Origin: Escherichia phage SR04
Length of the DNA stretch: 40,594 nt
Strand: one strand, 5' to 3'
Sequence record: OQ870567.1
Positions 1 through 36,739 of the stretch are shown one piece after another. The notes under the pieces were generated by a model. The model had not been told where the DNA came from, searched no databases, and saw nothing but the letters and a program-made list of their open reading frames with translations. Position numbers and translations under genes: made by a program. How positions within the stretch are numbered: position 1 is the stretch's first letter; every line of letters starts with the position of its first letter.

Positions 1-2762
1 ACTACCGGCTCTGTTTTCTTCTCCCCATTAGAAGTAACAATAGGGTTGCTTCCGAGATATGCAGTTGTGAAACGGTTACTTGGTCCACCAAGCGCAATGA
101 CGTTATCGTGATAAGGCTTAACGTCAGCAGTCTGGAACAGATGCTCATCACCATTGTAAACTATTCGCTTTGAGTCGGTGTTATTTGCACCATAAAGCGT
201 AATCTGTGCGCCAGTCGTTGAACTGGTTCCTTCACCTCCGCAAAATATGGTGCGCTGCCCTGCCGGGTTATCAGTCGGTATAGACTTCCCGATAAACCCA
301 TATTCACCTTCCATTAAAACTTCAGAGCGAATGTTACTACTGGTGCTGGCTCTAATGGTCACATGACCTAAACCCAAATCCCCTGTAAATTCCATTGGCG
401 CAGGAACAGTGCGAATCCCATTCGTATCAAAAAACACGGGAACAGCTCTGTTAGGTACAGCACCATACCTGAAATCACGGGAGACATGATTACTTGGGCC
501 AATCTTCATTTTGTAGCAATACAAATCTGAGGGATGACCATCCGCTTTGAATGGGTCCTTCGCTGAGTTATCTCCATAGGTCCATGGGTTAAAATGGTCC
601 TCTCCACCAAACATGTAGTAGATGTAATTATCCTTCACAACTACCGAACCAACACCTACACCTGAGTTAACTATTCCGCCCTGATAAATCTGGTCAGTGA
701 TGTTAACCCATTCAATATCATCTGCATTCCAATTGTTTACATTCAAGCGCGCATAGAAGGTGCGAGGATAAGATGCCTTGTAACGATCATCTGGTGCACC
801 TGCTTCCCATTCATTTTCTGCACGTTCTGAACCAAACATAATAAGGTCATCCCCTACTTTAGCAAAAGGTAATGTAGTATGATGAACATTATGTGGAAAT
901 CTCAGTGACTCCCAAGTCTGACCTATGTCTCTACTACGATGCAAAGAGCTACCTAGTCTATCCCCACGAGTGCCACGAGTGATAAGGTATAATACACCGT
1001 CATAGTACTTGATGCACGGCTCTGCCGCATCTGGTTCATACTCAGATGGTATCTGACGACGAACATAACTAGATGGGCTATTGAAAGCGTCAGGGAAATA
1101 GAAAAGTCCAACTTCGCGTGGAGCTACATCGCCTTGATGATAACCCATAACAAAGCCATTGTTATCAATAGTAGCAAAGCTATGCACCTCTGTGACACGA
1201 GGGATTAGACCAAGGTCTGTCTTACGCCATGGAGACTTATGGAAAGAAGTACCCATGTGCCAATTCTTTCCAGCGTTATTCAAATCTGAAGTCTGCTGGT
1301 TGGGTGTAAGAACCGTGAAGTTGTCCTTATCTATTACGGTTGCAACAGTCATATCACCGGAGACACCTGTTACCGCAGAATTAGAGAAGTTAACAAAATC
1401 ACCCACGAATAGTCCGTGGTCTGGTACATGTATTGTTGCATATTGCTGATTTGCAGCTTTAGTGATACCACCAGTAAGATGCAGGCTACGAGGCATGGGG
1501 CGATCCCACAATGCACAATTGGTTAATGCGTTCTTGGCTAAAGTACGTGTTTCAATCATGGCAAACAGACGGTTGCGACATACACCCATACTCATACAGT
1601 GATAGTTCACTGTAGGGTAATCTGGATGCAGATCAGTTAACCACTCTGGAGTAGACCATGTTTGACCATCATCACCAGACTTAACCCATGATACATGCAG
1701 ACGACTAACACCATGACGATCACTACCCATGTAAGGTGCATATATCACATTATCATATACGAACGCTTTATCCTGAGGCCACGCATTGTAATAAGGGGTG
1801 TCCGTTATTTTGAACAACTCACCCTGAACAAATTCCTCAGAGGCATAATAAAGAGGTTGTCCGGGAATGCGCTCATAAACGAAACGAGTGTTGATGAAGC
1901 GACTAATGTCAGGCAGGGATGTGACCTTATATGTCTTCCCATTGCCATTAATCTTTTGTCCAACCGGTATGTCGTTTAATGCGCTCGTTAACGCTGCTGT
2001 ATCATCAGTGACACCATCACCTTTAGCACCCCAACCACGAACATCTTTTTCATCAAGCCAGCGTGCTCTATGTAATTCAGGGTAGAGTATTGCCCCTTCA
2101 GGATTTGAAATCTGACTTCTTAAAGCAGCATCACCAACACTAACCCACGCACCTAATCCAATCCCACCGGAAGTTTCAGGAGTTGAACCAGCAGGAACGT
2201 TCTTTGGAAGCGTACCATCCCAGCGGTAATAATCACCATCCTCTTCCCATAGCAGGACCTCGCTCCATGTTGTAACGTTGTAGCCTTTCTCGAAGGAGCG
2301 ACGGGTAATATAGCCAATTAGACCAGCTTCCCTGATACTCTCAGCGATTCGTCGTGCTTCGTCCTCGCTATCCTTAGCGTTGCCAGCAGAGCTACTAGCA
2401 GCATCGGCATATTCCTTCGCTAAGTCAACCGTTTGGTCTCGACCTTCTTCTGCAATATGGATAGCCTGAAGCTCTGAATTGGTCAGGTCACTAGCTGTCA
2501 ACACTGAGCCATTCCTGAAGTCTACCACTAAGTCAGTTCCAGTCTGACGGTGAATACGAACGATGTCGAAACCTGATTGGTCAACCAACATCTCAATCAT
2601 CGTTGGATTAAGGAATCGGTAATCTCGACCAACTTCCAGTACACGGTTCAGGGTAGGGTTAGAGCTATTCACCAGCGTAACAACAACAAACGTTCTGGCT
2701 AGGTAGTCGAACTCAATCCTGTACTGAGTGTTTCCTGAAGGGAATTGTGTAATCGTGGACAT
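1..2762 (-). CDS. Tail spike / endosialidase (T7 gene 17 position), 5' part; ATG at 2760-2762, continues across the circular junction into 40085-40517
   Basis: Hand translation gives MSTITQFPSGNTQYRIEFDYLARTFVVVTL..., matching the T7 gp17 N-terminal tail-attachment domain (EYLARKFVVVTL, DYRF, HVAEEARD). Downstream are sialidase Asp-boxes SGDDGQTW and SRDIGQTW. AGGAGG RBS at about 2767-2772. Confidence 0.85.
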   Translation of the reverse strand, partial: MSTITQFPSGNTQYRIEFDYLARTFVVVTLVNSSNPTLNRVLEVGRDYRFLNPTMIEMLVDQSGFDIVRIHRQTGTDLVVDFRNGSVLTASDLTNSELQAIHIAEEGRDQTVDLAKEYADAASSSAGNAKDSEDEARRIAESIREAGLIGYITRRSFEKGYNVTTWSEVLLWEEDGDYYRWDGTLPKNVPAGSTPETSGGIGLGAWVSVGDAALRSQISNPEGAILYPELHRARWLDEKDVRGWGAKGDGVTDDTAALTSALNDIPVGQKINGNGKTYKVTSLPDISRFINTRFVYERIPGQPLYYASEEFVQGELFKITDTPYYNAWPQDKAFVYDNVIYAPYMGSDRHGVSRLHVSWVKSGDDGQTWSTPEWLTDLHPDYPTVNYHCMSMGVCRNRLFAMIETRTLAKNALTNCALWDRPMPRSLHLTGGITKAANQQYATIHVPDHGLFVGDFVNFSNSAVTGVSGDMTVATVIDKDNFTVLTPNQQTSDLNNAGKNWHMGTSFHKSPWRKTDLGLIPRVTEVHSFATIDNNGFVMGYHQGDVAPREVGLFYFPDAFNSPSSYVRRQIPSEYEPDAAEPCIKYYDGVLYLITRGTRGDRLGSSLHRSRDIGQTWESLRFPHNVHHTTLPFAKVGDDLIMFGSERAENEWEAGAPDDRYKASYPRTFYARLNVNNWNADDIEWVNITDQIYQGGIVNSGVGVGSVVVKDNYIYYMFGGEDHFNPWTYGDNSAKDPFKADGHPSDLYCYKMKIGPSNHVSRDFRYGAVPNRAVPVFFDTNGIRTVPAPMEFTGDLGLGHVTIRASTSSNIRSEVLMEGEYGFIGKSIPTDNPAGQRTIFCGGEGTSSTTGAQITLYGANNTDSKRIVYNGDEHLFQTADVKPYHDNVIALGGPSNRFTTAYLGSNPIVTSNGEKKTEPV

Positions 2763-2808
2763 TATGCCTCCTTTGTTATTTAAACGGAGACCTATGGTAG
2801 CGCCTCCA

Positions 2809-2831
2809 GTTTCCTATAGTGATAGTTTAGT
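2809..2831 (-). promoter_or_regulatory. Phage RNAP promoter (phi17-like), overlaps the gp16 stop codon
   Basis: Minus strand reads ACTAAACTATCACTATAGGAAAC; the CACTATAGG core is shared with ten other sites and resembles the T7 class III consensus at -7 to +2. Confidence 0.7.
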
Positions 2832-5800
2832 CCTTGATGTGGATACCTTGCTCCTCAAACATTCCCAGTAACAACTTCTGAGTAATCGGGTCGTTCGGTA
2901 CCAGTTCACGGAAGGTGTTGTACATCCCGGTCATGTAGTCTCGTTCGTTAACACGGGTGTCTGACTTCAGGTATCCCGCCAAGTTGTAAGCCGTAGCACC
3001 AACGTTAGCAGCATAGCCGAAAGCCGGGACCTGCTCAAGGAAGTTGCCGACCACATTCATTACCGGACCACTGGAAGCAGCACCAAAGGCGATTGGCTTC
3101 TCCGTCTTCTCTGTAGGCGAACGAGGTAGGATAGACGAACGGAGCATCTTAGTGTCCTCATATCCAGCGATTCCACCTAGAATGTTAGCTACCCCAAGTG
3201 GGCCACCCAGATGTGAACTACGGGACAGAGCCGCATAACCAATCATCGTCGGGTCCAGAGCTTGCTTAAGGTAGTCACGGTCTCGACCATCCTGCATAGC
3301 ATAAGCCTTGACGTGCACCTGAGCTATGTAGTAGATACCAGCCAGACCCATAGACATCACGGTCGATAATGCAGCGTCAATCGCTCGGTTGTTCTTCGTG
3401 GCGTTATAGAAGGTACGCATGGTTCGCCCATTGATGGACTTGATGACGAAGTTCTTAAACTGAAGGACAGTCTTAGCGATAGGGCCATAAGCCTTGGCGT
3501 CCATGTTGGACAGCTTGTGGGGCCGGAGTAACGTTTCGTCAGCGATGGTGTCACCCATACGCCATAGGTCCATAGCCCTTGGGTCCTGACTGAACGCCTT
3601 CTTATCCTTGATGGTGTACTTCCCGTCTGGACCACGAGTCACTGACTCACGGATTAGGGACTTAATGCCATTCCACTGCTCGTCAGATATACCAGCGGTC
3701 TTCAGCCAGCGGTCATCGAACTTACGCTTACTACCAGTCAGGCTATGCTCCACGATGTCAGATAGGAAGCCTTGACGTCCAGCATCTAACAGGTAGTTGG
3801 TCGTACCGTTGAGGACTTTAGTGAACGGAGAGCGTACTGCAAGTTCGCCAGTGTAATACTTGGCAGTCCCCAGAGCTGTAGCTGTACCACGACCAAGGTC
3901 ACTGTAAGATCGCAGACGGTCAATGACATCCTGTTTAGACGGACGGATTGAGTCATCCAGTTCCTTACCGAAGATAACATTGTGCAGGTCCTTAATCTCT
4001 GAGGCCCCAACCTTCTTGTTACGGAAGGCTAGGTCACGGAAAATCGGGACTCCATGCAGCATTGCACGAACGTTGCCACGAGCCAGCATACCACCAATCT
4101 CCGTTAAGTTCTGAACACCCATGTAGGCATTCTTAGCGAAGAACGATAGGTCTGTCATTGTTCGCATCACGGTAGCGAAGGCTGCATCGTCAGCACCATC
4201 ACGTCGAGCACGACCTGTTAGAATCTTCAAGGTGTCACGTAAGGTAGATACTTCACCTTTCAACTTACCGTCATCCCCAGCCTTGTTCATCATGGTCTCA
4301 ACCAAGTCCTTCATGTCCTTCGTTGTTTTGCCTGTACCAGCCATGATAGCAATATCGCCATTAACTCGACGGTTGTAGGCCGGGACAATCTTGTCCATGT
4401 CCCACTCACGCAGGTTGTTGACACTGAAGGTCTGACCGTTAGGTAGGACGATTGACATATCGCTATCGAACAGGTTACGAGCCTCAAGGAAGCTGTTGTT
4501 CTCCAGACCAACCAGACCGTTGATGTTCTCTTCCATTACGGATGAACGTTCGAACTGCTCGGTGTGGGAGATGCCGTAAGCCTTATCGTTGGCGTACTTA
4601 TCGACCGCAGCAGCAAGCCCCTCTGGAGTCAACGTAGGGTCAGACTCTAAGAGTGCCTCGTCCACGCGTTTCTTGACTTCAGGTCGAGACGCATAGCTGG
4701 TCAACCATGACTTCTTGATGGCCTCCTGCAACGCCTCTGGACTCCCAAGCTCCTTGATGTACAGCTCCTTCATCTGTTTGCTATACACATGAGGGACGTA
4801 GGTTCCCTTGAAGCGGCTACCCGGAAAGATAGACTGAGCGTCTGGACGACCAAACATCGCCGGGTTCTCCATCATCTCACGCTTGGCGTCAAACTGGTTC
4901 TTCAGTAGGTCATAGACTTTAAGTTCTCCCGGAGTCAGTTCAGCCTTCAGGTTCCCACTTCCGTCTTCAATAGCCATAGACACACGCTGGTAGATGTCCT
5001 GACGGAATGCGCCAGAGTCTCGCCAGAATGCTGTCTGGAAGTACGGGTCCTTCAGTGCCTCAGTAACCGCATCGTCGATGTCGTTGTAGAACCGATGGTC
5101 CACAGCACGAAGTCTCTCGAATACGTCAGACGCAGTGGTCCCGATTTTACCTGAGGCCCCAGACTGCATACCAGTTGGTGAACGCACTAAGTCAGAAGCT
5201 ACTCCACGAATCTCAGGGTTCTCAGACCGAAGCAGCTTCAGGCCAATCTCAGTCAGACCACCAAGGTTCACACCCGCAGCGGCCCGTTCAGGCTCAATCA
5301 CTTCGTCAAAGACTTGACGTGTCTTAGGGTTCAGAGGGTTTTCACCAATCAGGATTGAACCATCTTCCAGTCGTACACTACCCGGCTCATTCGGAACGTC
5401 AGCGAACTTAACGCCTTGATGACTAAAGGTCTCCTCACCTTCTTGAATAGGAAGACGAGACAGGTCCTGACCATCAACGTTACGAGCGGTCTCACGAGCT
5501 TCCAGACGTGTGGCTGGACCAGCAAACTCATTAGTGTTGCGACCTAAGGCTCTGCCTAACCCATCAGCGATGGCAGTCATACCACCACCAAAGAGAGCAC
5601 CACCAAGGATAGCTTCAGCCACATGAGCATCACCGCCAGCCACTGAGGTACGGGCCATCTCTGATACACCAGCAAGTGCTCCAGATTGAGCAGCCACGGT
5701 GAACATCTTGTTGACCAGCTTCGCACCTTTGCCAACCTGTCCAGCGATAGGAACGTAGGTCAGCGGGTCTACACCAGCACCAATCACACCAGCTGCTAAC

Positions 5801-30633: not shown

Positions 30634-33315
30634 TTAAGCGAATGCAAAGTCTGAAGACAAGATGTCCTCAATATTCAGTTTACCTTTCTTCGGAAGCTCA
30701 GGCAACTTGTCGCGCTGGCTCTCATGAAGCTGGTATTCAAACTGCTCGTAGAAGTCAAGCAGCACATCGTTGTCGCGGTAGGTCTCGACCATCGTCTCAC
30801 GGATACCACGGAACAGATACTCAGCGTCAGCCGGGATGGTCCCGAAGCTATCATGAATCACTGCGAATGACATCACGCCATACTTTCGGTGCGTGTGGAC
30901 TACAGTCTTGCGGAGGTGGCTACCATCTTGTGAGTGGACGAAGTTCGGGCTAATGCCTGACTCCTGCTTGTGCTTGTCAAGCTCTTTCTTCGTGCCTTTG
31001 TTGACCGTAGGTTGAAGGTTGAATGACCCTAAGAACATCAGATTCAGACGAGTGGTATCCTTCTTGCGGTATTCCTGCCAGACCGGGAAACCATCAGGTG
31101 TTACCCAATGTACCGGAAGGCAAGGCTTCAGGATTTCTCCAGTCTTCTTGTCCTTCACTTCAGCAGCCAGCAGCTTGGCAGCACCCTGAAGCCACTTCAT
31201 CGCGTCAACCGCAGCAACTACGGTCACGCTCACAGCTTCCCAAATCATCTTAGCCATGAAGCGGGACGCTTGGCTTGGTTCGGTGAACATAGCGCCAGAC
31301 CCTGAGTCAATCGCCGGCATCACGATGTCCTCGTAAACTTGGTCAGCGAAGCCGTACTCTTTCGACCCGTATGCCAGAGTCATGACTGAACGCTTAGTGA
31401 CCTTGCGTGACATACCGTATGTCAACCACTGACGGGCCAGCTCTCGTGTCCCCAGCTTGATACGTTCGGTAATCTCACCAGTTTTCTTATCCTCGTGAGT
31501 GACCATCTCGTTGTCAGTACCGGTAATCAGCAGGACTTTAAGCTCCTCCTCAATGCGGTCAGACACAATGCGGTAGATGTCTTGTACCATGCCGGATGGC
31601 GTCAGGTTTACTGCATGTCCACCGATGTGGTCACGAAGCATCGCACTGAAGTGCTGAATACCAGAGCATGACCCATCGAACGCTATCGGCAGTGAGCAGG
31701 AGTAAGACAATCCGTGGCGCATTACACCAGCATACTCGAAGCAGAACGCAAGGAAGCAGAACGGAGAGTCTAACTTGCCCCACCACTCAATACTATCCAT
31801 CGGTGCCTTAGCAGCAGCCATGATGTTTTCGTGGTTGTCTTCCACCCACTTGATGCGCTCCTCGAAGGTGACTTTATCAACACCCGCGCAGTTTGCACCA
31901 TGGACCTTCAGCCATTTGAAACCGTCAGCACCAATAGGCTTACCGACTGCCAGAGTCAGGAGACCCTTCTGCATGTCGTTACCCTGAGGGTTGAACATCG
32001 GCACAGCGTAGACTCGACCGCGCCAGTCCATGTTGTATGGAAACCAGATGGCCTTGAACTGAGAGAACTTATTCGCTTGGTTGATGATAAAGCTCAGTGA
32101 TAATCTGCGTGACTGTCGGGCCTTCTCGCGGCGATAGATACCAGCAGCAGCCTTCTTCCATGCCTTGAGTTCCTCCTCGGTCTCACCAGCATAGTCCTCA
32201 GGCTTCAGCGGTTCCATCTGAGGGATGTCATCAATAGGCGTGTTGTTCAGCTTCTCGACCATGTTCACCACGTTCAATACCTTCTTGTTCACTTTCCAAG
32301 GTGTATTTTGAATGATGTTCACAGCGTCATAGACTTCAGGCATGTACACGTCTTCATAACGTGCTACCGCAGACTTAGACCCTAAGCGAATCAATGGTAA
32401 CGGTCTGCGACCTTTGGCCCAGTACCCACCGCCTACTACACCAGTCCACGGTTTAGGTGGAACGACGCAAGGCTGATAGACTGGCGCAATACCCGCAAGG
32501 CTGAATCCACGTTGTGCCATCTTCTTTACCCAGAAGTCTGACAGGTGGACCATCTCAACGTCAGCCGCCGCATTGCCAGCACCATAACGCTTAAGCTCGA
32601 CCAGTTGTGTGGACTGGATGACAATCTCGAGCATCTTGATGCCAACGTGTACCGCTTCGGTCGGACTCCAAGTCCCCCACGCATCTTCCAGTTGGCCTTG
32701 CTCCAGCATGGATGCCTCTACAGCTTGCATGTAGGCTTTCTTGTAGGATGCCCCAGCTCGCTTGTTCAGGTTCTCAGCTATCGCCTTCTTGAAGTGCTCC
32801 TTCTCCTTGTCACGGATGCGACCGAAGCGGATTTCGTCCTCAAGTGTGCGACCTAACGCTGAGGCCATAGGTGTAATCGGTATCCCTTCAGGCTTGACCA
32901 GCTTGGAGAGTATGACCTTCAGTATGATAACCGCAGCGGACTCACAGGAGATGCGCATAGAGCGGTCCTTGACGGCCTTCTCTTCAGTGCTCAACGTGGT
33001 GAACGCTACGCTAGGACGAGAGGTTGACAGCTTCCCGTCTTGGCCTTCGTGCCACTCCTTGACTGCTTGCGCAATCTTAGGCACCAGAGTCTGCATCAAA
33101 GGCTTGGCGACCTGATTGTCTGCCAGTTCCCCGCGCTCGGTCTGGCGCTCAAGGTTCTTGATGAAACGTCGCTCGCCTTCTGTGTAGGCCTCATGCTCAA
33201 GCTGAAGCTGTTTGACTGCAAGGTCTTGCCCGTAGTGGTCTGCCAGCAGGTTAAACGGCTCAATGGCGTTCGACACATCAGAGAAGTCGTGTTTATCAAT
33301 AGAGATGACGCTCAT
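30634..33315 (-). CDS. DNA-directed RNA polymerase, single-subunit (gp1-like, 893 aa)
   Basis: Near-collinear with T7 RNAP: DFSD, PFN.LADHYG, FQPCVVPPKPWTG, WFPYNMDWRGRVYA, FDGSCSGIQHFSAMLRD, HDSFGTIPADA, C-terminal FAFA. Confidence 0.97.
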   Translation of the reverse strand: MSVISIDKHDFSDVSNAIEPFNLLADHYGQDLAVKQLQLEHEAYTEGERRFIKNLERQTERGELADNQVAKPLMQTLVPKIAQAVKEWHEGQDGKLSTSRPSVAFTTLSTEEKAVKDRSMRISCESAAVIILKVILSKLVKPEGIPITPMASALGRTLEDEIRFGRIRDKEKEHFKKAIAENLNKRAGASYKKAYMQAVEASMLEQGQLEDAWGTWSPTEAVHVGIKMLEIVIQSTQLVELKRYGAGNAAADVEMVHLSDFWVKKMAQRGFSLAGIAPVYQPCVVPPKPWTGVVGGGYWAKGRRPLPLIRLGSKSAVARYEDVYMPEVYDAVNIIQNTPWKVNKKVLNVVNMVEKLNNTPIDDIPQMEPLKPEDYAGETEEELKAWKKAAAGIYRREKARQSRRLSLSFIINQANKFSQFKAIWFPYNMDWRGRVYAVPMFNPQGNDMQKGLLTLAVGKPIGADGFKWLKVHGANCAGVDKVTFEERIKWVEDNHENIMAAAKAPMDSIEWWGKLDSPFCFLAFCFEYAGVMRHGLSYSCSLPIAFDGSCSGIQHFSAMLRDHIGGHAVNLTPSGMVQDIYRIVSDRIEEELKVLLITGTDNEMVTHEDKKTGEITERIKLGTRELARQWLTYGMSRKVTKRSVMTLAYGSKEYGFADQVYEDIVMPAIDSGSGAMFTEPSQASRFMAKMIWEAVSVTVVAAVDAMKWLQGAAKLLAAEVKDKKTGEILKPCLPVHWVTPDGFPVWQEYRKKDTTRLNLMFLGSFNLQPTVNKGTKKELDKHKQESGISPNFVHSQDGSHLRKTVVHTHRKYGVMSFAVIHDSFGTIPADAEYLFRGIRETMVETYRDNDVLLDFYEQFEYQLHESQRDKLPELPKKGKLNIEDILSSDFAFA

Positions 33316-33384: not shown

Positions 33385-33407
33385 GAGTCCTATAGTGATA
33401 GTTAAGT
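33385..33407 (-). promoter_or_regulatory. Phage RNAP promoter about 75 nt upstream of the RNAP gene
   Basis: Minus strand ACTTAACTATCACTATAGGACTC; full match to the promoter core. Confidence 0.6.
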
Positions 33408-33412
33408 CATAA

Positions 33413-33673
33413 TTACTTGCATATCAGTGGGTTAGCGTGAAGATGACTGAAGTCACCGTGAGTCGTGTGCTTGATGTCTGACCGTTGGTCTATCGCCTTC
33501 CAGCCTGAGACTAAAAGTTTACCATCGTCAGTGATCGGTCGTCCACCAAACGCCAGACTCATCAGTTCGTACTTATTGCCCTCAGCCCTCATGCGGCGAT
33601 GTAAGAACACGTCACGCTCTATTTGCTCTACACGGCTACGGATAGATGGTTTGTTAATGTATACGGTTTTCAT
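33413..33673 (-). CDS. Hypothetical early protein (86 aa), at the position of the T7 gene 0.7 kinase but not a kinase
   Basis: ORF with a TAATG overlap to the upstream gene; no kinase motifs. Confidence 0.5.
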   Translation of the reverse strand: MKTVYINKPSIRSRVEQIERDVFLHRRMRAEGNKYELMSLAFGGRPITDDGKLLVSGWKAIDQRSDIKHTTHGDFSHLHANPLICK

Positions 33674-33870
33674 TACAGTTTGCTCCCAATAGTTGCTATA
33701 TCCCAGACGTTCGCTAAGTTGCGCATGAATCGTCCGTTAGGTTGACGTACAGTCCAGCGGACCATACGTACATAGTTGAATTTATAGACTTTACGCGCTT
33801 TGTTGATGTCTCTCACCAGCACGTAGGCGATAAGTCCATAGCCTATGGCTATCAATAATGAAGATATCAT
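33673..33870 (-). CDS. Small early membrane protein (65 aa, MISSLLIAIGYGLIAYVLV...)
   Basis: N-terminal transmembrane segment; ATGA overlap with the preceding small ORF. Confidence 0.5.
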   Translation of the reverse strand: MISSLLIAIGYGLIAYVLVRDINKARKVYKFNYVRMVRWTVRQPNGRFMRNLANVWDIATIGSKL

Positions 33871-33956
33871 AGTGATTTCCGTTTAATACAATCGTATACC
33901 CCATAACCTATCATCAAGATAACTGGCGCTAGACATACCCAGTAACCGATGTTCAT
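33867..33956 (-). CDS. Small early membrane peptide (29 aa, MNIGYWVCLAPVILMIGYGVYDCIKRKSL)
   Basis: Hand translation; GGAG 6 nt upstream; shares an IGYG motif with the next ORF. Confidence 0.4.
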   Translation of the reverse strand: MNIGYWVCLAPVILMIGYGVYDCIKRKSL

Positions 33957-33984
33957 AATTAACTCCTATCAATTTAAGTGATAA

Positions 33985-34015
33985 TCTTTGAGGCCACCTA
34001 TCAGTCGTGACCTCT
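33985..34015 (-). promoter_or_regulatory. Hairpin GAGGUCAC-loop-GGUGGCCUC, possible RNase III site in the early transcript
   Basis: Related to the AAGGUCA...UGGCCUU hairpin family; intergenic. Confidence 0.3.
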
Positions 34016-34021
34016 CGTCTA

Positions 34022-34171
34022 TCACTCAGTGTGTAAGCTGTCGTGCATACGTTTGCGGCGCTTATAGACCACCTTCAGGAGACGCATAGACTCCTCGTGG
34101 TTTAATCGCCCGGTCTTGACCATAAGCCGGGCGGTGGTGACGTGGTGCTGGCAGAGACCATAAGTTACCAT
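34022..34171 (-). CDS. Small basic early protein (49 aa, MVTYGLCQHHVTTARLMVKTGRLNHEESMRLLKVVYKRRKRMHDSLHTE)
   Basis: Hand translation; TGATG overlap with the ocr stop; GAGGAGG 8 nt upstream. Confidence 0.45.
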   Translation of the reverse strand: MVTYGLCQHHVTTARLMVKTGRLNHEESMRLLKVVYKRRKRMHDSLHTE

Positions 34172-34506
34172 CACTCGCAGTCCTCCTCTTCAGCCTCAAA
34201 CCAGACCACCTCAGAGCTATTAGACACATCGTTATACAATGCCTCATAGATGCGAGCTTGTAGTATACGCGTTATGTCCTTGGTCTCAGGCATCAGCCCA
34301 GAGTCTTCGAACTCATGGTCAATACCATCAGCAGCCATCACCGTGAAAATCTCGTGGTAATAGTGCGGAACATTACCGTCTACGACCTCATGTAGCGCAT
34401 CGCTGTAGTCATCGCCTTCAGCTATTTCGTCGCACTGAATACGCTCATTGAACAGCTCAACGGTTGCAGCCAGCAGCTCATAGTATGCGTTAGCGTTACG
34501 TTCCAT
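34171..34506 (-). CDS. ocr: Ocr-like anti-restriction protein (gp0.3 homologue, DNA mimic, 111 aa)
   Basis: D...A.H...D..VPHYY..IF.VMA..GID.EFEDSGLMP.TKD..RILQARIYE and an acidic C-terminus align with T7 Ocr. Confidence 0.85.
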   Translation of the reverse strand: MERNANAYYELLAATVELFNERIQCDEIAEGDDYSDALHEVVDGNVPHYYHEIFTVMAADGIDHEFEDSGLMPETKDITRILQARIYEALYNDVSNSSEVVWFEAEEEDCE

Positions 34507-34579
34507 AGTTATATCCTCTCAGTTGTTAGTGACTATCAGTCAGGCCGCTATGAGTCTAACGACCTGTAGTTAATCACTC

Positions 34580-34834
34580 TCAGTTAGCGAAATAAGGAGC
34601 TGAGACGCCAGCTGTAGGACTCACGGCTATCTGCGCGTCTATCAGGTAGGTCTCGTTATCTATACGCACAGTATCTACGCTGTAGTTGCTGAACGGCTTG
34701 CTTGAGACCTTGCGCACTACCACACGGTGACGCGCTCCTGTCATCTCTTTAAGCTGAATCCACGCATAACCTTTAGTGTTCACGAATACTTCATTACGAT
34801 TAGTGATTGTGCTTAAGTGTTTCATAGTGTCCAT
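34580..34834 (-). CDS. Hypothetical early protein (84 aa; start possibly the second Met), first gene after the early promoter
   Basis: ORF upstream of ocr, preceded by a repeated hairpin element. Confidence 0.45.
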   Translation of the reverse strand: MDTMKHLSTITNRNEVFVNTKGYAWIQLKEMTGARHRVVVRKVSSKPFSNYSVDTVRIDNETYLIDAQIAVSPTAGVSAPYFAN

Positions 34835-35012
34835 CCGTTAAGTTAGTGACTATCAGTCAGGGCCTTTGAGTCTACATCTGAAGGCCCTGTAGTTAGTCGC
34901 TATCGGCGTACATTAAGAGTTTATCCAGATTGTTAAAGAGCATTCCCTTCAGTCAGAGGACTTCAGGTAGACCATTTCAGTGTTGGTCATCACCGTTGTT
35001 TCGATGTGGTAC

Positions 35013-35042
35013 AGCTTACATCGTATCGTTACATCTTGTCAA
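35013..35042 (-). promoter_or_regulatory. Sigma70 early promoter (A3-like): -35 TTGACA, 18-nt spacer, -10 TAAGCT
   Basis: Minus strand GTAGTTGACAAGATGTAACGATACGATGTAAGCTGTACCACATCG resembles the T7 A3 promoter region. Confidence 0.45.
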
Positions 35043-35399
35043 CTACTTTCTGTCATCTGCCTGTTGTTCGTATGACTGATCAGGCTGTCTACTTAACCGG
35101 GATGATCCGGCGTCTTCACTATCCGGTTGTTGCCGTGTCGTGTTGACGGAAGCTATTAAGCCATAGCCTAGACCTATAGTCAATAGGTAATTTGAAATAA
35201 TATTGATTAAGCTATCGTCGGCCTCATGGTTTAAGAGGATATAGTCTTTGACTAACATGTCTTTGACCTTAAGTCTATAGCTTTGTGTCTATTAACTGTT
35301 GGTATCTGACTGTAGGTGTTGGTGTCTTATGGTTGAGACTGTAGGTTAGTGAGACTGTAGGTTAGTTAGACTGTAGGTGTAGGACGTAATGTTATACTA

Positions 35400-35619
35400 T
35401 AACACTATACAGATAGAGACTCAGAGACAGACCTATAGCCCCTACCTATCGTCCTTCCCTAAGCCATAGCCTAGACCTATCGTTGACCTGAAGTCCTGAC
35501 CATCGGTCCAACCTTATGACAGACTGGCTGTGACTGCAAGGAGCAGTAACTGGGGTAGGGCCTTTTGTCTGGACTGAAAGAGGGCCTATGGGGAGACTTG
35601 AGGTTCTTGAACTGTGAGA
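35400..35619. repeat. Predicted genome terminus and direct terminal repeat (collapsed to one copy in this circular assembly)
   Basis: Minus strand from about 35619 reads TCTCACAGTTCAAGAACCTCAAGTCTCCCCATAGG, like the T7 left end TCTCACAGTGTACGGACCTAAAGTTCCCCCATAGG. It is flanked by CCTACAG repeat clusters (35308-35382 and 35655-35703), analogous to the T7 CCTAAAG arrays. Confidence 0.4.
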
Positions 35620-35856: not shown

Positions 35857-36015
35857 TTAATTACACTGAGAGACCAGAGAGCATACGAGAGTCTCGACCC
35901 ACCCGACCCACTGACTTCCAGCAGTAACGCCAGCAGCAAGTAGAACAGCAGCAAGAAACCTGTATGTAGCTCGATTGGTCGCCAGAGCTTTAAGTACAGC
36001 TTTGGTCTTTGCCAT
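35857..36015 (-). CDS. gp19.5-like small protein (52 aa, MAKTKAVLKALATNRATYRFLAAVLLAAGVTAGSQWVGWVETLVCSLVSQCN)
   Basis: Hand translation; the TYRFL motif and position after the phiOR-like promoter match T7 gp19.5. Confidence 0.55.
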   Translation of the reverse strand: MAKTKAVLKALATNRATYRFLAAVLLAAGVTAGSQWVGWVETLVCSLVSQCN

Positions 36016-36160: not shown

Positions 36161-36183
36161 CATCCCTATAGTGATAGTTAAGT
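36161..36183 (-). promoter_or_regulatory. Phage RNAP promoter (phiOR-like) between the terminase/HNH genes and gene 19.5
   Basis: Minus strand TTAACTATCACTATAGGGATGGG. Confidence 0.7.
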
Positions 36184-36196
36184 TAACCTATTGAAT

Positions 36197-36739
36197 TTAC
36201 TTGTGGTTTCTCTTGGCCCTATCACGCTTAGGGGACCGTAGGGAAACAGCGTACTCCTTGTGCTTCTCTTCACGTAGTGCTGTCAGCCATGCTTCAAGTT
36301 CTATCACAGAGTCGGAAGTCTTTGTGTAGCACTTACCCTTAAGTCGCAACTGAGCGCGATACTTTCCGGTAGGCTTGAAGAAGCTGATACCCTTAGGGAG
36401 ACCATTAGTCTCGCCACCTCCTGAGTTCCATCTGTTCTCCAATGCTGTTACTAACCTGTAGTTATCCGGCCTGTCATCAAGCCTATCACCATTGATATGG
36501 TCAACCATCATGCCAGAAGGTATTCGACCAACGGCTAGGCTGTAGATGATTCTGGCACGTCTATAGCGACTACCAAGGACCTTCACGATTGCGTACCCAG
36601 ACGGATGGACTGAATGTCCCATGACCTCGCCTGGCTTCTTGTTAGAGCCTTTATAGGGCTTCTTGCACACCAACTCACCATCTACATAAGCATAGTGATT
36701 AAAGAGGGCCACCCTGTCGATGGCCTTCTGTTTACTCAT
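36197..36739 (-). CDS. HNH homing endonuclease 2 (180 aa)
   Basis: HNH motif MVDHINGDRLDDRPDNYRLVTALEN; GGAGG RBS 6 nt before the ATG. Confidence 0.8.
   Translation of the reverse strand: MSKQKAIDRVALFNHYAYVDGELVCKKPYKGSNKKPGEVMGHSVHPSGYAIVKVLGSRYRRARIIYSLAVGRIPSGMMVDHINGDRLDDRPDNYRLVTALENRWNSGGGETNGLPKGISFFKPTGKYRAQLRLKGKCYTKTSDSVIELEAWLTALREEKHKEYAVSLRSPKRDRAKRNHK

Follow-up and report, generated by a model that had tools for sequence, protein, structure and literature searches.

Introduction

The class I (early) region of phage T7 comprises genes 0.3, 0.4, 0.5, 0.6A/B, 0.7, and 1; the early regions of K1F (AM084414, DQ111067) and EcoDS1 (EU734172) have no equivalent of the kinase encoded by T7 gene 0.7. 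Here, we analyze the early region of Escherichia phage SR04 (sequence record OQ870567.1; the whole stretch of 40,594 nucleotides (nt) is referred to below as the window), a block of six small genes at positions 33,413 to 34,834, upstream of the gene for a single-subunit RNA polymerase (RNAP). We present evidence that the 49-amino-acid product of one of these genes, gp0.35, is very likely a diverged homologue of the T7 protein Gp0.4.

T7 Gp0.4 is an FtsZ inhibitor (Kiro et al. 2013, cited in PMC9372555). Infection with K1F, a therapeutic model phage that blocks FtsZ ring function, produces filaments with ca. four Z-rings, as is the case with T7 (Dhanoa et al. 2022, PMC9372555). K1F was stated by the same authors to lack "the 0.4 genes", with BLAST revealing no similarity, and its FtsZ inhibitor was called "currently unknown" and "likely to be novel" (Dhanoa et al., PMC9372555). 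In the literature that we searched, no later paper names the K1F inhibitor or a function of gp0.35. By mutagenesis of T7 Gp0.4, FtsZ inhibition was found to depend on each of the residues V15, V22, W28, M32, L35, and Y39 (Zhang et al. 2026, PMC13423816), while A12, T14, L16, S19, R23, and K36 are required only for activation of the immune protein CapRel-Ebc (PMC13423816). The authors of the latter work stressed that homologues should not be presumed to share function.

Results and Discussion

Organization of the SR04 Early Region

SR04 is a Kayfunavirus (family Autographiviridae), and the window is 96.5% identical to phage Zappy across 24.6 kb. In megablast comparisons, its early region was 93-95% identical to those of Escherichia phages vB_EcoP_F and K1F, with a range of 93-97% among Kayfunaviruses. 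Every long open reading frame (ORF) of the window is located on the minus strand. The six early ORFs are found in the ORF list exactly where the preliminary description had placed them, between host-type promoters and the RNAP gene:

34834..34580, minus strand: gp0.2, 84 amino acids; relatives annotate the second ATG, at 34825, which is probably the true start and gives 81 amino acids
34506..34171, minus strand: gene 0.3, short form of Ocr, 111 amino acids, Pfam PF08684
34171..34022, minus strand: gp0.35, 49 amino acids, very likely a diverged T7 Gp0.4 homologue, predicted FtsZ inhibitor
33956..33867, minus strand: 29-amino-acid single-pass membrane peptide, recognized by a selection test and a strong Shine-Dalgarno sequence
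33870..33673, minus strand: gp0.37, 65 amino acids, T3 gp0.6 family, phrog_2385
33673..33413, minus strand: gp0.38, 86 amino acids, phrog_7066
33315..30634, minus strand: gene 1, single-subunit RNAP, 893 amino acids, the downstream limit of the block

The genes preceding gene 1 are the annotated gp0.2, 0.3, 0.35, 0.37, and 0.38 of K1F/EcoDS1, and the layout of the block was therefore already known. In K1F and EcoDS1, the order of genes is the same, protein identity is 84-96%, and the same host promoter and the same phage promoter before gene 1 are present. The differences concern Ocr, which is 169 amino acids long in K1F versus 111 in the window; the slot after gp0.35, which is occupied by gp0.36 (55 amino acids) in K1F and by the 29-amino-acid peptide in the window; and gp0.2, which the window shares with K1F and which EcoDS1 and Zappy lack. 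The first 200 amino acids of the gene 1 product are 97% identical to K1F gp1, and 48.5% identical to T7 RNAP.

The block resembles T7 class I in having host-RNAP promoters, RNase III-type hairpins, Ocr as the first T7-type gene product, a ca. 50-amino-acid protein whose gene overlaps the ocr stop codon, small membrane or basic proteins, and gene 1. Unlike T7, the window contains neither the 0.7 kinase nor a homologue of 0.5 or 0.6A, while gp0.2 is located before ocr, gp0.38 takes the place of the kinase, and a phage promoter precedes gene 1 (none is annotated immediately upstream of the RNAP gene in T7). We consider the block likely to be a class I (early) operon, from a K1F-like Kayfunavirus of the T7 family; by analogy with T7, it would be transcribed by host RNAP, and the preliminary description, which had assigned it to the early region of a T7-family phage, was in this respect right. 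As a genome feature, the block is routine: GenBank has long contained K1F-type early regions, and nothing in this one amounts to a new kind of system. The new point is the placement of gp0.35 in the Gp0.4 family, which provides a concrete, testable link to the FtsZ block caused by K1F.

The ORFs had also been described as chained by overlapping start and stop codons. This holds for three of the five junctions, namely ocr/gp0.35 (1-nt overlap, TGATG), 29-amino-acid ORF/gp0.37 (4-nt overlap, ATGA), and gp0.37/gp0.38 (1-nt overlap, TAATG). The other two are spacers of 73 nt (gp0.2 to ocr) and 65 nt (gp0.35 to the 29-amino-acid ORF), each containing a hairpin. Shine-Dalgarno sequences are found 5' of ocr, gp0.35, the 29-amino-acid ORF, and gp0.38, while gp0.37 is coupled to the 29-amino-acid ORF via the ATGA overlap. 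The conserved start of gp0.35 is the ATG at 34171; a GTG located one codon 5' of it is not conserved.

The following putative regulatory elements accompany the genes:

35147..35183, minus strand: A1-like host (σ70) early promoter, TTGACT-17-CTTAAT, inside the spurious gp0.1 ORF
35013..35042, minus strand: A2/A3-like host early promoter, TTGACA-18-TAAGCT, assigned by reading of the sequence and comparison with T7 A2/A3
34844..34902, minus strand: hairpin 1, RNase III-like, fold of -22.8 kcal/mol, z = -2.84, upstream boundary of the gp0.2 cassette
34528..34578, minus strand: hairpin 2, RNase III-like, R0.3 equivalent, -23.3 kcal/mol, z = -4.43, just upstream of ocr
33990..34014, minus strand: hairpin 3, after gp0.35, 8-pair stem within a -15.4 kcal/mol fold, z = -2.70
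33385..33407, minus strand: phage-RNAP promoter before gene 1, with 23 of 23 bases identical to the EcoDS1 "phi" promoter

The A1-like promoter matches an annotated host RNAP promoter of EcoDS1 at 33 of 37 bases and resembles T7 A1; the A2/A3-like site scored below the threshold of a generic promoter scanner. By analogy with T7, both sites may function as host promoters. Hairpin 2 is more stable than any of 200 shuffled versions, and hairpins 2 and 3 occupy the R0.3 and R0.5 positions of T7/T3. Hairpins 1 and 2 have the arms TAACTACAGG and CCTGACTGATAGTCACTAAC in common (identical over 10 nt and 20 nt), and cleavage of the hairpins by RNase III may be expected from the T7/T3 precedent. During genome entry, host RNAP would start at the A-type promoters (35183-35147 and 35042-35013) and read on to gene 1; RNase III-type hairpins located 5' of gp0.2, 5' of ocr, and 3' of gp0.35 would be the sites at which the transcript is cleaved. 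The core of the phage promoter, CACTATAGG, is present in nine copies on the minus strand, mostly as ACTATCACTATAGG; the other cores are at 36173, 30329, 28283, 18449, 15628, 14641, 10098, and 2821. From the copy located 5' of gene 1, the newly made polymerase would reinforce its own synthesis.

A 10-mer, TAGGCTATGG, occurs with similar flanks at three sites on the minus strand: near the terminal repeat (35464-35473), in the A1-like promoter (35161-35170), and within the 5' end of gp0.37 (33836-33845; TTGATA-N16/17-TTATCG). The copy inside gp0.37 could be a minor host promoter similar to "B" of T7/T3, or it could merely reflect a shared Gly-Tyr-Gly coding motif.

Relationship of gp0.35 to T7 Gp0.4

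The preliminary description named 0.4 among the functions of the T7 early region and counted the 49-amino-acid ORF of the block as uncharacterised. Our comparisons instead place its product with T7 Gp0.4. With plain BLAST, the two proteins show a marginal similarity of 36% over 39 residues, at E values of 0.004-0.011 in tiny databases. Comparison of families revealed matches over near full length in both directions, with T7 Gp0.4 (phrog_7202) cross-matching phrog_5058 at 9e-5, and gp0.35 (phrog_5058) cross-matching phrog_7202 at 3.9e-3. An hhalign comparison of 17 Kayfunavirus and 13 T7-group sequences resulted in an end-to-end alignment of 47 columns with P = 5.2e-5, versus P = 0.1-0.5 for control pairs. 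The two groups are also bridged by gp03 of Pectobacterium phage PP47, annotated as a "putative cell division FtsZ inhibitor": its C-terminal half is 43% identical to T7 Gp0.4 and 44% identical to a gp0.35-like protein of Kayfunavirus LET1, which is in turn 60% identical to gp0.35 of the window. Finally, a gp0.4-superfamily hidden Markov model (HMM), built from the Gp0.4 group and the Morganella and Pectobacterium members with zero Kayfunavirus sequences and run without filters, had gp0.35 as its only significant match among 849 six-frame segments of the window (E = 4.9e-5; the next match was at 0.78).

Genomic position agrees with these comparisons. The gp0.35 gene occupies the slot of T7 gene 0.4, and in both phages the ATG overlaps the ocr stop by one base (T7 coordinates 925-1278 for gene 0.3, then 1278-1433 for gene 0.4). 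The proteins are of similar length, 51 amino acids in T7 versus 49 in the window, and both phage lineages share the FtsZ phenotype.

The residues known from mutagenesis of T7 Gp0.4 are distributed unevenly between conserved and diverged positions. The set required for FtsZ inhibition aligns to V11, V18, H25, M29, L32, and Y36 of gp0.35, and five of the six are identical (hypergeometric P = 0.009, given 15 identities in 47 positions). Within the Kayfunavirus family, these five vary little or not at all; the sixth, T7 W28, is a histidine in gp0.35, and likewise in PP47. The set required for CapRel-Ebc activation aligns to Q8, H10, T12, R15, K19, and K33, of which only one is identical. Since these contact residues are not conserved, gp0.35 probably does not trigger CapRel-Ebc.

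We therefore regard descent of gp0.35 and T7 Gp0.4 from a common ancestor as very likely, judging from sequence comparison. That gp0.35 has kept FtsZ-inhibiting activity is a less secure prediction, which we nonetheless favor. The protein would most likely bind monomeric FtsZ at the synergy-loop surface and thereby stop Z-ring assembly. It is the prime candidate for the K1F FtsZ inhibitor, and such an activity would explain the filamentation phenotype of K1F.

Several points weigh against this picture of a T7-type early operon encoding an FtsZ inhibitor. For SR04, it rests on sequence analysis, and the promoters and RNase III sites were assigned by analogy with T7/T3. The sites returned by the generic promoter scan were no more numerous than in shuffled sequence, and an Rfam search of the region gave no hit and offers no family for the hairpins. 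Similarity of gp0.35 to Gp0.4 is 32% over 47 residues, and the probability that HHalign itself assigns to the alignment is 39%. While T7 Gp0.4 is acidic (pI 4.75), gp0.35 is strongly basic (pI 10.3), a charge reversal that must have changed surface chemistry, so the target could have shifted; and Trp28, a key residue, is replaced.

An unlikely but appreciable alternative follows from these very points, i.e., that gp0.35, whether it shares descent with Gp0.4 or resembles it only by chance, no longer acts on FtsZ, and that division of K1F-infected cells is blocked by another early product, for example one of the membrane peptides or gp0.38. Small membrane proteins that perturb division are common in phages. 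The low identity, the reversed charge, and the loss of Trp28 would all fit such a loss of function, which is also in keeping with the caution that function cannot be assumed across homologues (PMC13423816). The pattern of conservation speaks against this alternative: of the six FtsZ contacts that experiments showed to be required, five are identical, with little or no variation in Kayfunaviruses, while divergence is concentrated in the CapRel-Ebc contacts, which are dispensable for FtsZ inhibition. It also leaves aside that the K1F phenotype is the same as that of T7, and that the gp0.4 HMM match is unique within the window. If gp0.35 is indeed an FtsZ inhibitor, the question of the K1F inhibitor would be closed, and the Gp0.4 family would extend across Kayfunaviruses, with 166 phage records. 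A natural variant would also be at hand that keeps FtsZ-binding residues and has altered those sensed by CapRel-Ebc, separating target binding from immune detection.

Absence of the gp0.7 Kinase and the Question of Anti-Defence Functions

The absence of a gene 0.7 kinase, pointed out in the preliminary description, was confirmed. A tblastn search of the window with T7 gp0.7 had a best E value of 1.1, and the ORFs located between the promoters and gene 1 encode at most 111 amino acids. The kinase is missing from 18 of 19 sampled relatives as well. Only Cronobacter phage GW1 has one, a 244-amino-acid, kinase-domain-only gp0.7 without the shutoff domain, followed by gp0.37 and gp0.38; the GW1 locus (L019, positions 1735-3673) has a SAM lyase and this kinase where the window has ocr and gp0.35. 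A BLAST match between gp0.37 and residues 271-293 of T7 gp0.7 raised the idea that gp0.37 or gp0.38 is a detached gp0.7 shutoff domain, which was rejected by hhalign (P = 0.16-0.47). The early proteins of this kinase-less phage were not informatively richer in Ser/Thr/Tyr (0.16, versus 0.16 and 0.17 in T7 and T3).

The preliminary description had proposed the small ORFs as prime candidates for undescribed anti-defence or host-shutoff proteins. None of the five small proteins has an experimentally established function, and no anti-defence evidence was obtained for any of them. Scans of all six proteins with Pfam, NCBIfam, and PADLOC recognized Ocr only, and none of these families is among the 200 accessory genes of the Silas et al. 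screen; orf24 of that screen, which comes from an Ocr-containing region, is unrelated. The remote homology and structure checks that had been recommended for each ORF connected gp0.35 to Gp0.4 and gp0.37 to T3 gp0.6, but provided no known fold for gp0.2 or gp0.38.

Ocr itself is a clear family member (Pfam PF08684, E = 2.3e-31, 108.7 bits versus a cut-off of 25) and is 51% identical to T7 Ocr over 101 amino acids. In composition, it is as acidic as T7 Ocr, with a pI of 4.05 and 29 Asp+Glu versus 5 Lys+Arg in 111 amino acids. From its family membership, it is predicted to mimic DNA and to block both type I restriction and BREX. In close relatives, Ocr is either 110-114 or 167-169 amino acids long (the long form is found, e.g., in locus L001, positions 1114-1623). 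The long form has an extra C-terminal segment of ca. 58 amino acids and ends in the same EEDCE; the short form, present in the window, is consistent with a deletion between acidic repeats.

The gp0.2 gene is present in five of 19 sampled relatives and absent from Zappy, the closest genome. Homologues with 36-70% identity are found in Klebsiella podophages, in phiKT, and in unrelated phage groups, including phages of ca. 150 kb (phiWec188, nepoznato) and ca. 70 kb (St11Ph5, pSb-1). The predicted structure is a small all-beta protein, confident throughout (pLDDT 87), for which a fold search found no solved relative. Together with one hairpin, gp0.2 forms an insertion/deletion cassette (34525-34902, minus strand) relative to Zappy (L039, positions 4265-4360). 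The sole hairpin that Zappy has 5' of ocr is chimeric, combining the 5' part of window hairpin 1 with the 3' flank of hairpin 2. From this chimera and the shared hairpin arms, we infer that recombination between hairpin repeats adds or removes gp0.2 together with one hairpin, which points to RNase III-type sites as places where phages may swap early genes by recombination. In our model of the operon, gp0.2 would be an optional, horizontally mobile small beta protein.

Other slots vary too. The ocr slot of relatives contains short or long Ocr, a 174-amino-acid protein (phrog_11084), or a SAM lyase, and other slots contain 41- and 66-amino-acid proteins, a 115-amino-acid HTH-like protein, or endonuclease VII. 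This fits an accessory hotspot beside a core of gp0.35, gp0.37, and gp0.38, and the mosaic is no more than circumstantial support for a defence-related role of its variable members. Very close relatives differ in whether they carry gp0.2 and the 29-amino-acid peptide; it is for gp0.2 that an accessory and possibly anti-defence role has the most support, followed by the peptide. SR04 and Zappy constitute a natural gp0.2-plus/minus pair with which a defence-related role can be tested.

The gp0.38 protein is known from this lineage only (223 phage records, ca. 130 clusters at 90% identity), and in the sampled loci its gene is always located directly 5' of gene 1. In an exhaustive HMMER search of 1.84 billion proteins, the gp0.38 profile matched 13 representatives. 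Those retrieved were short gp0.38-like proteins; the other two, of ca. 1,600 amino acids, were matched in multiple short stretches and are taken as spurious matches to long repetitive proteins. AlphaFold2 predicts three helices at residues 11-66 (pLDDT >90 over ca. 21-60; mean pLDDT 75), and a Foldseek search of the model against the PDB returned no match with E < 5. The most conserved stretch of the protein, (K/R)HT(T/S)xGDF(S/T/C)HLH, is located in the low-confidence tail, and this C-terminal motif, TTxGDFSHLH, is predicted to be disordered; such a peptide would probably dock onto a host protein, although the case for this is weak. Variants of 108-141 amino acids with N-terminal extensions are found in several relatives (L021, positions 3510-3932; L007, positions 1846-2244; L012, L013, and L016), and one relative carries an inserted endonuclease VII gene between gp0.37 and gp0.38.

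With these data, the proposal can be considered that all five small proteins counter defences or shut off the host in ways so far undescribed, and jointly compensate for the missing gp0.7 kinase. The T7 kinase is a broad anti-defence factor that disarms many defence systems (PMC13645617), and a lineage lacking it might therefore need substitutes. The region has the features of a gene gain and loss hotspot of the counter-defence kind, with Ocr, SAM lyase, and kinase in neighbouring slots of relatives; gp0.2 comes and goes between 96.5%-identical phages and recurs in unrelated groups; and gp0.38, kept in its 223 records, is located directly 5' of gene 1, as gp0.7 is in T7. Nevertheless, we find the proposal doubtful. 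The small proteins are similar to no known anti-defence or defence-related family or fold, and gp0.37 and gp0.38 are unrelated to gp0.7 or its shutoff domain. Nor are these two simple replacements for the kinase, because GW1 has the kinase alongside both. For its part, gp0.35 is more readily understood as an inhibitor of FtsZ, and gp0.35, gp0.37, and gp0.38 are near-core in the lineage rather than variable. A narrower version, equally doubtful in our view, is that gp0.38, gp0.2, or both represent the first members of new families devoted to host takeover or counter-defence. The gp0.38 tail would then dock on a host protein such as RNAP or a defence protein, and gp0.2 would be a mobile counter-defence cassette moving between phage families via RNase III hairpins.

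Coding Evidence for the Small Genes

Coding potential was tested by pooled pN/pS over homologous stretches of 15-20 related loci, with 5-19 distinct Kayfunavirus sequences per gene. The values obtained were 0.25 for gp0.2, 0.24 for ocr, 0.34 for gp0.35, 0.28 for the 29-amino-acid ORF, 0.39 for gp0.37, and 0.36 for gp0.38. No internal stop is found in any aligned copy, and a few copies end one to a few codons later. We conclude that all six early genes are under purifying selection, and that the ORFs exceed chance expectation. Searches by tblastn matched 116 phage records for gp0.2, 166 for gp0.35, 93 for the 29-amino-acid ORF, 655 for gp0.37, and 223 for gp0.38. The block thus encodes Ocr plus five real small proteins, as had been proposed.

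The same test was applied to a neighbouring ORF:

35258..35043, minus strand: 71-amino-acid ORF, K1F "gp0.1", promoter/leader DNA and not a gene

Although this ORF is annotated in GenBank as "gp0.1" in some records, and as "alpha,alpha-trehalase" in vB_EcoP_F, it was rejected as a candidate sixth small gene. It has a pN/pS of 1.01, eight of 12 distinct relatives carry in-frame stops while others carry frameshifts, it overlaps the A1-like host promoter, and part of it matches non-coding T7/T3 DNA between A1 and A2. The clean rejection of gp0.1 means that the pN/pS test is able to discriminate. The possibility that some sub-60-amino-acid ORFs, the 29-amino-acid one above all, are untranslated chance ORFs in spacer DNA, which might be suspected from the spurious nature of gp0.1 and from the absence of the 29-amino-acid ORF from several GenBank annotations (K1F and vB_EcoP_F included), is very remote given the pN/pS of 0.28 (at pS 0.45), an ATG and stop kept in 13 of 14 distinct copies, 93 records with at least 80% query coverage and identity down to 52%, a strong Shine-Dalgarno sequence (TAGGAG) 7 nt 5' of the start, and a stop that overlaps the next start. 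The single truncated copy (L017) contains no internal stop and adjoins a deletion that takes out most of gp0.37.

The 29-amino-acid peptide consists of a hydrophobic core followed by a KRKSL end. Databases treat it inconsistently; it is not annotated in vB_EcoP_F, and in K1F, which does not have it, the unrelated 55-amino-acid gp0.36 fills the same slot. In relatives, the peptide either co-occurs with gp0.36 or is replaced by it.

The gp0.37 protein belongs, by profile similarity, to the T3 gp0.6 family and not to the T7 gp0.6 family: it matches phrog_2385 at 1.1e-30, and T3 gp0.6 falls in the same family at 9.1e-30. By tblastn, it matches T3 gp0.6 and BA14 gp0.6A at 35-39% identity, as well as several hundred Klebsiella phage records, and EcoDS1 annotates its gene as gp0.6. 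In addition to their length of 65 amino acids, the T3 and BA14 proteins share with gp0.37 an N-terminal transmembrane helix and the motif RD...K.V.K...TVR..NGRF; the difference lies in the overall identity, just ca. 35-39%. The 17-residue hydropathy maximum of gp0.37 is 2.12, at residue 2; its C-terminal domain is basic, and the protein has a pI of 11.0. In the literature that we searched, no function is reported for the family. Identification of gp0.37 with T7 gp0.5 or gp0.6A (the MreB inhibitor) was rejected, as these are different PHROGs and hhalign P values were 0.11 and 0.53; BLAST found no match of gp0.37 or the 29-amino-acid peptide to T7 gp0.6A or gp0.5. The likeness of both to T7 gp0.5/gp0.6A is positional and compositional only, i.e., that of small membrane or basic proteins. 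In infected cells, the peptide and gp0.37 would be two translationally coupled small inner-membrane proteins.

Genome Ends and Neighbouring Genes

The left end of the genome (TCTCACAGTT..., T7-like) is found at ca. 35619 on the minus strand, 3' of the terminase and HNH genes, and the stretch at ca. 35406-35619 (minus strand) contains both this left end and the end of the terminal repeat, the latter with a match to the concatemer junction of EcoDS1. Because the left end and the end of the terminal repeat are both located inside the window, the assembly is circularly permuted or of concatemer type, with one copy of the repeat.

Near-identical Kayfunavirus early genes are also present in records labeled "Acinetobacter phage vB_Aba_01KA" (PV615262.1) and "Enterococcus phage EFA-1" (MT350292.1), whose host labels look doubtful. 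An HNH endonuclease gene (36197-36739, minus strand; Pfam HNH_3, 1.6e-14) is located between the gene for the large terminase and the end of the genome, and is followed by a 52-amino-acid ORF (35857-36015, minus strand) that is annotated in relatives too.

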